DNA from: a virus
Lineage: Duplodnaviria; Caudoviricetes
DNA length: 64,000 nucleotides
IMG/VR virus record: IMGVR_UViG_3300049182_000044
Span: 217,567-281,566 of that record
Direction: 5' to 3' (one strand)
Position 1 is the first letter of the stretch. Each line of letters starts with the position of its first letter. The position numbers and the translations under genes were made by a program. The notes under the pieces were generated by a model. It saw only the letters and a program-made list of their open reading frames with translations. It was not told the DNA's origin and made no database searches. Shown here piece by piece: positions 1,576-47,468 of this stretch.

Positions 1576-3585
1576 TTACTTGTCCGGACGTTTGGGGTTA
1601 GCAATACGCTTCGATTTCCATCCGTGCGGGTAGAACTTTTCCCGATACTCCGCGTTGTGCGGATACTCCAAGAACTCGTCAACCTGAGCCATGTCGTAGC
1701 GTGCAACCTTATCACCGATCTTTACCAGACGGCCTTTCGGGTCCTGCATGTCTTCGAGTGGGCGGCGACTGATGTGAGTCCAGCCTGTACGCTTCTCAGT
1801 CTTACCCGATACATGGTACGCATCGTCCCAGGGGAACGACCACTGACGAACCTTCGCCTTACCACCGGATGCTTTCAGCAGCGCTGCGAGCTTGCCTTTC
1901 GGCATGATCCAGAAGCAGATGATGTCTTGCAGGTTGCGAGGATTCGGCATGTGAATCTTCGTCACCAGCTCGTACTGCGTTGCACCGCGTTCGTTGATGA
2001 TCGACAGCACGGTCTGTGCGTAGTCTTCCGGCTTCATCACCGGAGCTTTCTTCACAGCCTTGCGGCCCTGCTCTAGGTTTTGCTCTTCCTTATCTAGCTT
2101 CTCCTGAAGTGCCTTGCGCTTCTCTTCGAGTTTGCGTACAACGGCTGTGTTCGCGTCTTCCTCTTTGCGCAATTCCTCAATCTTCTTCAGGCGCACTTCG
2201 TTCTTGGCCAACAGCGTGCGATCAGCTGCGTCCATACGGGCTTCGCGAAGCTTGTTCAGTTGCCTGTTCAGCTTGATGTAGCGTGCTTCAGCTTCTTCCA
2301 GTGTCTTCAGAATCTGAGGATCAATGCCTGTGCGCTTATCGACCGGCAATGCCTTCTGAGCATCTTCAGCGCGCTTGAATGCATTACGCGCTGCCAACAG
2401 GAAGCCCTGTTCGTGCGATTCTTTCTCGGTCTTGTCGGCCTTGAAAATCTCACGCGAAAGCTCGCGCTCTTTGTCGGTACGACCTTTAACCAACTTCGCA
2501 TTCAGTGAGCGATTCGCCTCGTCGATCTTCTTCTGAATTTCAACGATCTTCGGCAGCTTACTCTTCTTCTGCTTTTTGCGCTCTACTTTCAACTCTTCGT
2601 CGATTGCAGTAAGTTGCTCCTGCAGCTCGCCGATAATACCGCGCTTGTTCTTTGAAAACCCGCGCACGAACTTCTGACGGCCTTTGACCTGCGCTTCAAT
2701 CGAAGCGTTGATAGCCGAACGCGATACAAGCATGATGATCTGTTGCTCGAAGATCACATATCGCTCCATGCCTGCATACGGCATCGGAACTTCCGTGAAC
2801 GGTACGTGTGCCTTTTGAAGAGCATACGGGTTCGATGCGTTGCTCGTCTCGAAGATTGGGGCGACCGGCAAACGAATCAGTTCGTAGGGCGCTTTCAAGC
2901 TCTGAGGCAGCAAGCTACGCATTGCCCGCATACGTGCAAACCTGCGTTTGACGTCCTTCTCTTCTTGCGACAGGCGAACAATACGCTCGTTATCGCGTCG
3001 AGCTTCGCGCTCGTCCTCGTCCTCCGGCTTATCGTCCTCTTCGTCCTCGGAGTCTTCACCAGGAACAACTGCAGCTTCGACCTGGCGAATCGTGTTCGCG
3101 GCTTCCGCCAGCTTTTCCTTCCACTCCGCGTTGGCCGCGATTGCAGCTTTAGCGCGTGACTGAACGTCGGTCAGAGTCGCATCTGCTTCGACAGGCGCAG
3201 GTGCGGATACGTCGGACTCACCGGCCGAACGCGAGATGATTTTTTCAGATTCTGAGCTTAAGGATTCTACGAACTTCGGAACGAACTTCGTTTGAAGATT
3301 CGAGCAAACAGAGCGAAACTCCTTGACGGAGAGTTCCTTGGATGCCAAACCTTCGAGTAGTCCAGAGAAAGTGTTGTCGATGGAGACAAGCGCCTTCTTG
3401 GTTTGTGTGAGGCTGCGTCTCTTTTTAGACTCGGAGATGCTCTCGAGTGTTTTGCCAATTTCGCCTTTGGTGGAGGCCAAGGTGGATTGTAACACCTTGC
3501 TCTTATTGGATTTCTGGCACAGCTCAACCGTTGATAGGATGAGTGCTTGCACATTGTCCAATTGTGCGAGTACCCTACGTTTCAT
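1576..3585 (-). CDS. large coiled-coil hypothetical protein
   Basis: Long ORF; ATG at 3585 after AAGGGG RBS; K/E/R-rich heptad segments and an acidic patch. Confidence 0.8.
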   Translation of the reverse strand: MKRRVLAQLDNVQALILSTVELCQKSNKSKVLQSTLASTKGEIGKTLESISESKKRRSLTQTKKALVSIDNTFSGLLEGLASKELSVKEFRSVCSNLQTKFVPKFVESLSSESEKIISRSAGESDVSAPAPVEADATLTDVQSRAKAAIAANAEWKEKLAEAANTIRQVEAAVVPGEDSEDEEDDKPEDEDEREARRDNERIVRLSQEEKDVKRRFARMRAMRSLLPQSLKAPYELIRLPVAPIFETSNASNPYALQKAHVPFTEVPMPYAGMERYVIFEQQIIMLVSRSAINASIEAQVKGRQKFVRGFSKNKRGIIGELQEQLTAIDEELKVERKKQKKSKLPKIVEIQKKIDEANRSLNAKLVKGRTDKERELSREIFKADKTEKESHEQGFLLAARNAFKRAEDAQKALPVDKRTGIDPQILKTLEEAEARYIKLNRQLNKLREARMDAADRTLLAKNEVRLKKIEELRKEEDANTAVVRKLEEKRKALQEKLDKEEQNLEQGRKAVKKAPVMKPEDYAQTVLSIINERGATQYELVTKIHMPNPRNLQDIICFWIMPKGKLAALLKASGGKAKVRQWSFPWDDAYHVSGKTEKRTGWTHISRRPLEDMQDPKGRLVKIGDKVARYDMAQVDEFLEYPHNAEYREKFYPHGWKSKRIANPKRPDK

Positions 3586-13710: not shown

Positions 13711-13788
13711 TGAACCTAATGGTTCTGCGAATCATGCAGTGCAGATCCCCTACGTCTACATTATAACATGAAAAATCGGAAACGTCAA
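13711..13788 (-). promoter_or_regulatory. sigma70 promoter P1 with downstream operator-like element
   Basis: TTGACG-17-TATAAT (13783-13788, 13760-13765); AACC-TAAT-GGTT element 35 nt from the -10; leader shared with P2. Confidence 0.85.
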
Positions 13789-18316: not shown

Positions 18317-18441
18317 GCAAACCTGATGGTTCTGTGAATCGCGCAGTGCAGATCCCCTACGTCTACATTATAACATAGATTCTGCGTTTTGTCAATAAAT
18401 CAACCCCTGACGGTCTAGGCTGCCAAAACCGTCAGGTTTGC
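18317..18441 (-). promoter_or_regulatory. promoter cassette P2: sigma70 promoter between inverted 18-bp elements
   Basis: TTGACA(18390-95)-17-TATAAT(18367-72); GCAAACCTGATGGTT 18317-31 and AACCGTCAGGTTTGC 18427-41. Confidence 0.9.
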
Positions 18442-23510: not shown

Positions 23511-23807
23511 CTAATGGCTTGCTCGTGCCTCTTTTAAGGTGTCCTCCAGTTTCTGAAGGTACGGCTCAATTTCAGATCGGAAAGAAGCAGGAGTGAGTGG
23601 TCTCTCAATACGCAAAGGCTCTCCAACGACCTCCTTGTTTTTCAAGATGCGCTCACTCCCGTCATCGTCGATGAACACCACTCGATGTGCCAGAGCTACG
23701 TCTTGCATCGTGCATGAAAGATCGTAGTAATGAACCTGTCCTGCAGGTTTCATCCGAGCTGCCGAACGTAGGTTGTGGCGACGAATAATCAGTTCGAGGT
23801 ATTTCAT
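23511..23807 (-). CDS. hypothetical protein
   Basis: 98 aa, coupled to upstream gene. Confidence 0.75.
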   Translation of the reverse strand: MKYLELIIRRHNLRSAARMKPAGQVHYYDLSCTMQDVALAHRVVFIDDDGSERILKNKEVVGEPLRIERPLTPASFRSEIEPYLQKLEDTLKEARASH

Positions 23808-24517
23808 GGAATCTCCTGCGCATGCTGCATACGATACCTAGGGTTCTCCCACAAGGATAACTTCTCGTTCCAAGTAGGGTTCTTCAACACCCCGGTGCTT
23901 TGCGTTTCCTTGAACATCCACTGCACTGACTCCTCATAGTCTTTGCCCAAGATGGCATAGTTCTGAAGGTTGATGACCGGGTCCATGCCGCGCATAATTA
24001 ACTCGGCCGTGGCATCGAGCGAAATAAACAGCGCGCGACGAATTGCGTACAAGGGTATGCGACCGCGATAAGCGCATGTGCCCATTGCTTCGAGGCTGCG
24101 CTCAGCGCTCACCTTGTGCATGTCCTTGCGGTGATCCTGCAGGAACATGCTGATTGCTTTGTCGCCTGTGACGCCTCCTTCAACCAACTGACCTGCCGCC
24201 TGGCGCAGCCACAGGATCAATACGTCTTCGTCAGCACAGAACTTGTCCTGCTCAAGAAGCTCTGTATTGATTTCGTAGATGACCGTCTTGTAGACGTCGT
24301 TTTCGTGCAGCGCCTGTTCTGCGAAGAACAACGGGTAAGCACTCGTCAAGTAGATGTGATCGGGGCTCGATTCACCAAATGCATGAGCTGGCCCGACGTT
24401 TGGGTTGCGCACACAGGTTGCGGCGATGCGCGACAAGCAGCGAGGAAGCAGTCCGTTCTCTGCAATTGAATCGTGCCGCGCAGCCGTAGTGCCGTGATAA
24501 AGGAACTTTGGAATCAT
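23804..24517 (-). CDS. ADP-ribosyltransferase-fold protein (H-type; Tpt1/PARP-like start)
   Basis: LYHGTT...SIAENGLLP, HIYLTS, VIYEIN, DED. Confidence 0.65.
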   Translation of the reverse strand: MIPKFLYHGTTAARHDSIAENGLLPRCLSRIAATCVRNPNVGPAHAFGESSPDHIYLTSAYPLFFAEQALHENDVYKTVIYEINTELLEQDKFCADEDVLILWLRQAAGQLVEGGVTGDKAISMFLQDHRKDMHKVSAERSLEAMGTCAYRGRIPLYAIRRALFISLDATAELIMRGMDPVINLQNYAILGKDYEESVQWMFKETQSTGVLKNPTWNEKLSLWENPRYRMQHAQEIP

Positions 24518-29138: not shown

Positions 29139-29636
29139 CTAGCCTTGGCTTTCATCAGCGGCGGCTTCAGGCAAATACAGCTGGTTTGATCGTAGCGTAT
29201 CGACAATCGACTCTACGAGTCCGACGCCGACGCCAGGTAGTTCAAGTAAACCCTTTTCAGTCATACGAAGCAGTTGTGCAATGTGCGTGATACCGTGCTT
29301 CTCAAGCGCAGTAAGCGCACGTTGCCGGAATCCGTAATCAATCAGCGGCTTGTTCAAGCGACGTGCTAGGTGCATTGGGTTCTGCACTCGGGTTTTCACA
29401 ACCTGAGCATCCGGAACTCCTTCGCCAGAAGCCTGAGGCGTTTCAGCTTTCTTTTCAACCCAACCGCCGACTGGCATGTTCACGCGCAGACCATGCTGGA
29501 CTTTCTCCTCGTTCACGATCTTGTCAACGTCTTCCATCGAGTGCCCGCTAATCAGGAGAGCACGTACCGAAGCGCGAAGCATTTCCTGCAATGCGTAGTT
29601 CATGTTGGATTTTTCAAACAGTTCCTTGTTGTTCAT
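29139..29636 (-). CDS. protein with RNA polymerase alpha-subunit C-terminal-domain-like region
   Basis: LNKPLIDYGFRQRALTALEKHGITHIAQLLRMTEKGLLELPGVGVGLVESIVDTL aligns by eye with alpha-CTD ([55 protein letters not shown]). Confidence 0.75.
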   Translation of the reverse strand: MNNKELFEKSNMNYALQEMLRASVRALLISGHSMEDVDKIVNEEKVQHGLRVNMPVGGWVEKKAETPQASGEGVPDAQVVKTRVQNPMHLARRLNKPLIDYGFRQRALTALEKHGITHIAQLLRMTEKGLLELPGVGVGLVESIVDTLRSNQLYLPEAAADESQG

Positions 29637-29649
29637 GTTCTTCTCCTAG

Positions 29650-30171
29650 TTACGCTGCTTGTTGGTGAAATCGTAGGGCACGCTCGCGTTGAACGCGCAA
29701 CACTTCAGGATTGTTTTCACGAACCCAGTAGTCCAACTGCTCGATGTTGGGCACACCTTCGATGCGACGCGGGTGCTCCTCGTCTTTGACATATGCCCAG
29801 CCTGAAACCTTAGGCCACGGCTCCTGTCCACGTTCGATATTTACATTCTCTGCAACGTAGACGTTGACGCGGCCTGGCGTTAGGAACGAAACGCCTTTCT
29901 CGTCCGGATGTGGACGTGCTGTGGTGCTGCACATGCTGCCACTCATTTCAAAGCCCGAGTGCTTCACCAAACGATCATCAGACCGAATAAGCCTCACGAA
30001 AAACAGACGAGGCATACCCGTGTCAGCGTGCGGTTGGTAGCCGGTAATCATTACCTCGACTTCGCTACCAACCGCAGGGTTTCGCTCACGCTTCGGAAAC
30101 AGTGCTATGACAGCACCGATCTTGGCGATCACTTGCCCAGGTTCACGACCTTGTAACACGGTCACTTTCAT
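29650..30171 (-). CDS. hypothetical protein (possible TRAM/OB-like N-terminus)
   Basis: 173 aa, GGAGG RBS. Confidence 0.75.
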   Translation of the reverse strand: MKVTVLQGREPGQVIAKIGAVIALFPKRERNPAVGSEVEVMITGYQPHADTGMPRLFFVRLIRSDDRLVKHSGFEMSGSMCSTTARPHPDEKGVSFLTPGRVNVYVAENVNIERGQEPWPKVSGWAYVKDEEHPRRIEGVPNIEQLDYWVRENNPEVLRVQRERALRFHQQAA

Positions 30172-32741: not shown

Positions 32742-32790
32742 TTCGTTACTCCTTCAAGGTTGAACGGGGCAGGTGCCCCGCTCTTTTGCG

Positions 32791-33307: not shown

Positions 33308-33430
33308 GCAACCTGACGGTTTTGCGAATCGTGTGGGGCAGGTCCCCCACGCCTCGATTATAACACACATTCCCTGATTTGTCAAATCGACGGGCCAGGA
33401 ACGGGCATACGTCAGAACCGTCAGGTTTGC
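33308..33430 (-). promoter_or_regulatory. promoter cassette P3: sigma70 promoter between inverted elements
   Basis: TTGACA(33380-85)-17-TATAAT(33357-62); GCAACCTGACGGTT 33308-21 and AACCGTCAGGTTTGC 33416-30. Confidence 0.9.
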
Positions 33431-34380: not shown

Positions 34381-34485
34381 TTAATGACGGGTGCGAAGTA
34401 GGTTGTACACGTAAGCGTGTAAGGCTTGCCGTGGTGTGATGTCCATACGGAACACTACGACCTTGGCTTGCATGGTAACGGTCAT
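34381..34485 (-). CDS. small hypothetical protein (34 aa)
   Basis: AAGGAG RBS; MTVTMQAKVVVFRMDITPRQALHAYVYNLLRTRH. Confidence 0.5.
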   Translation of the reverse strand: MTVTMQAKVVVFRMDITPRQALHAYVYNLLRTRH

Positions 34486-34949
34486 AACGCACTCTCCTTT
34501 CCTATTGAGCCGTTGAATACGTACTCGAGCTTACGGGGTCGGTACGTCCCCTTTTCGACCCGGGTCAGGTCGAAACCGAAATGATTGACGAATGGACGGC
34601 TGAACTCGTCTAACATCTCTTGACTAACGCTGCACACAGGCTTGTCACAATCGAGCTTGCGTAACATGCGTTCTGTTAAATGGATACCGATGCCTCGGGA
34701 TCGGTAGACCGGATCGACGCGAATTGCCCTCAGCTTTGTTTCCTCTTCAGTGCGCTTACCCAACGCGACACCGACGATGCGATCATGCTCCTTGGCGAGT
34801 AAAAGCGTGTCATGACCTGTAAGGATGCCTGGGAGTACCTTGTTAGTCAACCAAAACTCAAAGCCTGGGTAGTAAGTGCCTAAACTCCGAAGTGTCTGAA
34901 AGGCAAGCACAGCCTCGGTTAAGGTTGTGCCCTGTTGATATGCGATCAT
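34482..34949 (-). CDS. GNAT-family acetyltransferase
   Basis: RIVGVALGK...KLRAIRVDPVYRSRGIGIHL (acetyl-CoA motif A), FGF near the end. Confidence 0.85.
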   Translation of the reverse strand: MIAYQQGTTLTEAVLAFQTLRSLGTYYPGFEFWLTNKVLPGILTGHDTLLLAKEHDRIVGVALGKRTEEETKLRAIRVDPVYRSRGIGIHLTERMLRKLDCDKPVCSVSQEMLDEFSRPFVNHFGFDLTRVEKGTYRPRKLEYVFNGSIGKESAL

Positions 34950-47345: not shown

Positions 47346-47468
47346 GCAAACCTGATGGTTCTGAATGTCGCGGTGCAGGTCGTATCCACGTCTTCATTAT
47401 ATCATGTTTTTGGCGTCCTGTCAAATCCGACGCACAGATGAAGATAGGCGCTAAAACCGTCAGGTTTG
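47346..47468 (-). promoter_or_regulatory. promoter cassette P4: sigma70 promoter between inverted elements
   Basis: TTGACA(47419-24)-17-TATAAT(47396-401); GCAAACCTGATGGTT 47346-60 and AACCGTCAGGTTTG 47455-68. Confidence 0.9.

Follow-up and report, generated by a model that had tools for sequence, protein, structure and literature searches.

In the 64,000-nt window of viral DNA analyzed here, a gene encodes a 165-residue protein (P0001) in which an RNA-polymerase alpha-CTD fold domain stands on a flexible linker behind a hairpin predicted to dimerize, and in which most alpha-CTD contact residues are lost. Stand-alone phage alpha-CTD proteins are, as a class, already known, auto-annotated and widespread; what is new here is the predicted dimerization module together with the loss of contact residues, P0001 being an unusually degenerate member, whose features suggest a loose DNA binder with two arms rather than a faithful decoy. 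The features are as follows, in window coordinates:

29139-29636, minus strand: alpha-CTD protein gene (P0001), an ORF of 165 aa with an ATG start, encoding a predicted dimerization hairpin, a linker and a divergent alpha-CTD
29643-29647, minus strand: Shine-Dalgarno sequence AGGAG of the P0001 gene, 6 nt before the ATG
29478-29636, minus strand: N-terminal two-helix hairpin of P0001, residues 1-53, a predicted homodimerization module with weak likeness to the YtrA-type GntR C-terminal hairpin
29379-29477, minus strand: linker of P0001, residues 54-86, flexible, poorly conserved and of low pLDDT
29166-29378, minus strand: alpha-CTD-fold domain of P0001, residues 87-157, in which R106 is E. coli R265 and G137 is G296
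29226-29249, minus strand: helix-hairpin-helix (HhH) hairpin motif of P0001, residues 130-137 (L-x-x-x-P-G-x-G)
33357-33385, minus strand: perfect sigma70 promoter P3 (TTGACA-17-TATAAT), 3.7 kb upstream of the P0001 gene and without an AT-rich UP element

The gene is well supported and stands as the first-pass annotation had drawn it: preceded by AGGAG, it lies in the one frame whose codon score is positive (+0.14, against -0.21 to -0.62 for the other five). That annotation had also taken the C-terminal 60 or so residues for an alpha-CTD, and this is borne out. Residues 93-149 match PF03118 at 25.4 bits (E 1.1e-5), over the Pfam gathering cut-off of 23.8 bits, while HHH_5 stays below its own Pfam cut-off for this protein; the top PDB sequence matches are all RpoA CTDs, the best being Thermus 1DOQ (E 3e-4), and an RpoA-CTD profile scores P0001 at 14.9 bits, where the highest of 1000 shuffles reached 8.6. 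In the AlphaFold2 model, residues 3-29 and 34-47 are helical and residues 87-150 fold into a compact domain of pLDDT 94-98; over residues 51-90 pLDDT is 48-68, with a low-confidence linker at about 51-80. The domain superposes on E. coli alpha-CTD with an rmsd of 0.9 A over 64 residues. An exhaustive fold search places alpha-CTDs first (Z 12.0, 11.8, 10.3 and 9.8; for the top match, rmsd 1.1 A over 67 aligned residues), a match that is partly circular in that the folding alignment contained alpha-CTD-like rows; the Atlas's own model of P0001 likewise retrieves PF03118 clusters only. A generic HhH domain is not the best match, such rivals scoring lower in the same fold search (RAD51C-N Z 7.9, NusA-AR Z 5.2). 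Residues ~90-157 are an RNA-polymerase alpha-CTD fold domain. The motif to which the annotation had pointed is present, as L130-x-x-x-P134-G-x-G137, but it fails as an alpha-CTD hallmark, because 58/58 proteobacterial RpoA CTDs read P-N-(L/F)-G at this position.

Retention of the fold is not matched by retention of the surfaces. P0001 was mapped to E. coli numbering (P97 = P256) and compared with 58 distinct proteobacterial RpoA CTDs, 13 other phage copies and 153 orphan domains, at the DNA (265), sigma-contacting (261) and CRP-contacting (287) determinants (PMC1874639; PMC9178005). Seven residues of the DNA determinant (R265, N268, C269, N294, G296, K298 and S299) do not vary among the 58 RpoA CTDs, and 5-7 of the seven are retained in the 13 other phage copies, whereas P0001 and its orthologue P0008 retain two, R265 and G296. 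These two residues are common to both orthologues and 13/13 of the other phage copies; D258, E261, N268, K298, S299 and E302 are not. In the orthologue pair N268, K298 and S299, which form part of the alpha-CTD DNA-binding surface (PMC1874639, PMC9178005), are replaced by T, G/T and L/T, and DNA binding may therefore be weak or lost. Residue loss is nevertheless not proof of its absence, because Thermus RpoA itself keeps only 3/7 of these residues plus R298. Still in place are the Arg with which helix 1 begins and the HhH glycine hairpin; the main-chain amides of such a hairpin contact phosphates whatever the side chain. Each orthologue has another Arg next to the DNA face, at position 263 in P0001 and 294 in P0008. 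Positions of the DNA face are identical between the orthologues in 6/9 cases, against 52% overall, a comparison of two sequences and thus of weak statistics.

The 261 determinant (D258 and E261, contacting sigma region 4) is lost from the pair, which has I/F at 258 and G at 261. The 287 determinant (T285-E288, contacting CRP AR1) differs between the two orthologues: against the reference T-E-V-E, P0008 reads T-L-T-E and P0001 T-E-K-G, keeping T285 and E286 and carrying V287K and E288G. Mean identity of P0001 to proteobacterial RpoA CTDs is ~26% (~31% to E. coli), and its CTD is net neutral to acidic in charge, as in E. coli. With 2/7 DNA residues kept, the acidic sigma patch lost and the CRP patch unconserved, the pair are, judged by their residues, poor mimics of the alpha-CTD of the presumed proteobacterial host.

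These surfaces bear directly on the earlier proposal of a decoy titrating host activators. In its wider form, a free dimer would titrate a host alpha-CTD partner (NusA AR2/NTD, SoxS/MarA/Rob-type or CRP activators) or absorb an R265-attacking enzyme, such as an Alt/ModA-like ADP-ribosyltransferase. The exact alpha-CTD fold and the kept R265 are consistent with such a role, and so are several precedents: free alpha-CTD binds NusA-AR2 with a KD of about 8 uM, relieving autoinhibition (PMC7171158), the target of T4 Alt/ModA is R265 (PMC2988021), and alpha-CTD is a known phage target (Rac, PMC7552054); moreover, phage promoters should not require alpha-CTD. A decoy should, however, track the host surface, and the degenerate surfaces of P0001, including the low identity to RpoA and the divergent 287 patch, thus disfavor faithful activator titration. 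From the Rob contacts V264, R265, P293, N294, L295 and K298 (PMC9178005), P0001 matches R265 and P293 only, and better mimics exist in other phages, among them IMG/VR copies that are 62-78% identical to E. coli. The supposed ADP-ribosyltransferase of this phage, an ORF with a YHGT motif at 23804-24517 (minus strand), has no Pfam or PHROG match. We consider a decoy role rather unlikely.

The helical N-terminal domain had been described as an unrelated one, joined by a linker, and the model and homology searches agree. Alpha-NTD homology was considered and rejected (hhalign probability 0.4% against E. coli 1-240, and no PF01193 match); Atlas structure rows with PF01193 have TM <=0.51, are CTD-driven and lend it no support. 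Two copies of residues 1-56 gave a homodimer prediction score of 0.46, against 0.00 for the best control, passing a mark that was reached by 20/30 solved dimers and 1/23 monomers; the runs had at least 97% of contacts in agreement and pLDDT of at least 77, and many of the interface residues (16, 19, 20, 27, 37, 40 and 41) are shared identically with P0008. The hairpin (residues 3-47) is predicted to homodimerize, a pass that may stem from likeness to solved hairpin dimers, including YtrA-type GntR. It has no Pfam match, blank Atlas features, no specific fold match (best Z 6.6) and, in a search of 5.8 billion proteins, no detectable relative beyond P0008. In YtrA-type GntR regulators, such a hairpin dimerizes the DNA-binding heads. 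Like their C-terminal hairpin (3BY6, 3NEU, 4R1H), that of P0001 has two helices and a Gly turn, and 3BY6 aligns with an rmsd of 1.7 A over 46 residues at 24% identity (Z 5.5); unlike them, P0001 lacks a winged-helix domain and carries its hairpin at the N-terminus, and the Z scores, only 5.2-5.5, lie within the helical-hairpin background.

P0008 (153 aa, E 8.5e-12; PF03118 score 27.7 bits) is the sole full-length orthologue among 1.84 billion representatives. Its contig consists of 15.9 kb of small unannotated genes, and similar neighbor sizes hint at synteny (182/153/179 aa at its locus, 173/165/176 aa at the P0001 locus). The two proteins are identical at 18/47 positions in the hairpin (residues 1-47), 6/46 in the linker (48-93) and 33/64 in the CTD, a profile that fits a pair of conserved domains joined by a free linker. 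The 5.8-billion-protein search, IMG/VR, JGI metagenomes and cultured phages yielded no further orthologue, P0001 has no PHROGs family, and searches with a neighbor gene and a core gene found no sister phage. Its other matches are mostly small orphans or proteins of tandem alpha-CTD repeats; frequent among them are proteins that measure 300-610 aa and carry 4-7 alpha-CTD-like repeats in tandem (P0002-P0007).

In a tree of 85 domains the long branches of the pair fall not within the clade of proteobacterial RpoA but with orphan and tandem-repeat copies; the tree is largely unresolved and points to no donor. This position, poorly resolved as it is, would suit a repurposed scaffold, that is, an alpha-CTD-derived domain binding a phage protein or another non-transcription target, whose ancestry tells little of its function. 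The nature of the nearest matches points the same way, as do the non-RpoA residues Q105, T109, V138 and S143, identical in both orthologues; but R265 and the HhH glycine persist and no other partner is indicated, and repurposing appears somewhat improbable to us.

The top viral fold matches in BFVD are phage proteins named “RNA polymerase, alpha subunit, C-terminal.” Stand-alone alpha-CTD genes are present in the cultured Bacillus phage Goe8 (QDP42789), Microbacterium phage Mazun (gp26) and Ruegeria phage V16 (gp23), with further such proteins in Rhodococcus phage Finch and in many uncultured Caudovirales in BFVD. The Goe8 gene (1959-2591) scores 78 bits, is well conserved and is present twice near both record ends, probably in a terminal repeat; the Goe8 copy is a better experimental model for the class. 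V16 gp23 (2432-3298) is a 288-aa protein with its alpha-CTD at the N-terminal end; its RefSeq copy is annotated as a pyrophosphatase, and its C-terminal part looks MazG-like by eye. The literature searched, mostly without subscription papers, yielded no functional study of phage alpha-CTD proteins.

The window forms the last part of a viral record of 281,566 bp, from a PaBG/Lu11-like jumbo phage. The phage SbcC is closest to those of the Pseudomonas jumbo phages PaBG and Lu11 (30-33% identity), and nearly all cultured matches of the phage infect proteobacteria. Its genome contains a single alpha-CTD and no match to RNAP beta, beta' or alpha-NTD, nor to PF01000. Because PF03118 is not found over cut-off in PaBG, Lu11 or HRDY3, the P0001 gene is considered accessory. 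Elsewhere in the genome, outside the window, 79748-83611 holds three tRNA-Lys genes and a permuted tmRNA (ARAGORN); within the window, a GNAT acetyltransferase (phrog_13728; 34482-34949, minus strand) is 45-53% identical to those of FLC9, RSF1, RSL2, AH04 and 201phi2-1.

Starting at P3 (33385), minus-strand genes follow one another closely, with gaps of <50 nt, and the P0001 gene is approximately the tenth of them. P3 probably drives this co-directional run, and from its position downstream of P3 the gene is probably early. Together with P1, P2 and P4, P3 belongs to a set of four putatively early promoters in the window (13713-13788, 18320-18438, 33310-33427 and 47349-47466, minus strand) with similar leaders; all are near-perfect sigma70 promoters, matching the consensus at 11-12/12, and none has an UP element, AT content in the upstream region being 0.33-0.48. 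An AACC-N4-GGTT dyad lies ~36 nt after the -10 box in each, and a second ~31 nt upstream of the -35 box in three of the four; such dyads number 8, against 0.61 expected, and have the look of operators at which a dimeric regulator would act. A dyad-like match at 30070-30081 was set aside as probably due to chance, lying inside the upstream ORF with a center and flanks unlike those of the promoter dyads. The product of the first gene downstream of P3 (32791-33240, minus strand), a candidate for binding the dyads, matches GerE/HTH weakly (E 0.03-0.05, below cut-off). A GC-rich hairpin with a T-run (32765-32780, plus strand), which separates this gene from the second one, would terminate antisense transcription, not that from P3.

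The first-pass annotation had offered, as a second function, a factor redirecting RNAP to these phage promoters. An adaptor that brings host RNAP to P1-P4 or to the dyads flanking them would accord with the gene's place downstream of P3 in a phage dependent on host RNAP, and with the excess of dyads. Such an adaptor is nonetheless very improbable: P0001 has no alpha-NTD to assemble with beta/beta', it has lost the acidic determinant that contacts sigma region 4, and the promoters are already at consensus without UP elements. The dyads, moreover, are symmetric and operator-like, unlike the AT-rich minor-groove targets of alpha-CTD, and PaBG, Lu11 and HRDY3 were not found to carry the domain.

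The reading that we tentatively favor, as possible rather than probable, is that P0001 is an early, two-armed, low-specificity DNA binder that hinders host alpha-CTD. In a phage without a multi-subunit RNAP of its own, the protein would probably be made early from the host-type promoter P3 and would pair via its hairpin, giving two alpha-CTD-fold domains on flexible linkers; the dimer would resemble the two CTD arms of alpha2 without the means to join polymerase. Each domain may retain a minimal contact with DNA backbone and minor groove through the R265 equivalent, the HhH glycine hairpin and the neighboring Arg, most side chains for UP-element, sigma and activator contacts having been lost. 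The dimer might then coat or bridge DNA and hinder host alpha-CTD at upstream promoter DNA, and the phage's consensus, UP-less promoters, which depend on no UP contacts and no activators, would escape this. This scheme starts from an observed ORF, fold, residue pattern and set of promoter features, takes its dimer from a structure model, and infers early expression, DNA binding and the effect on transcription. A more specific version, which we think unlikely, is that alpha-CTD has been remodeled along H-NS/Lsr2 lines, with an N-terminal dimer, a linker and a minor-groove head bearing Arg, and silences UP-element- or activator-dependent host promoters in trans; if true, such a silencer would be the counterpart of T4 ModA that is not an enzyme, and would give a first mechanism to a class of phage proteins that is widespread but unstudied.

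Many unrelated phages have free copies of alpha-CTD, and a test of any one of them would tell whether host transcription is tuned by phages through a copied piece of polymerase. P0001 stands at the degenerate end of this class and, with its predicted dimerization module, is a useful contrast, though less suited to a first test than copies from cultured phages that keep the host surface. Like the rest of the class it is small and phage-encoded, with PF03118 fused to an unrelated domain and no alpha-NTD; it departs from the 13 copies examined in its DNA face, and in having a hairpin without a detectable relative except in one orthologue.

Compared with the RpoA CTD (RpoA 249-329; PF03118; PDB 1LB2, 1Z3E_B, 1DOQ), P0001 has the same fold (rmsd 0.9-1.1 A over 64-67 residues) and likewise carries it on a flexible linker behind a dimerization domain, in this case a predicted one. 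It differs in its PF03118 score (25 bits, versus 73-98 for RpoA), in its DNA determinant (2/7 residues, versus 7/7 in proteobacterial RpoA), in its degenerate 261 and 287 patches, and in lacking alpha-NTD (PF01000/PF01193), so that it cannot assemble RNAP. Phage enzymes that inactivate alpha-CTD, namely T4 Alt/ModA and the phiKMV-like Rac, a GNAT protein that induces alpha cleavage, possibly reach the same outcome, the disabling of alpha-CTD-dependent host promoters; those enzymes modify or cleave host alpha, whereas P0001 is a non-catalytic copy of the domain.
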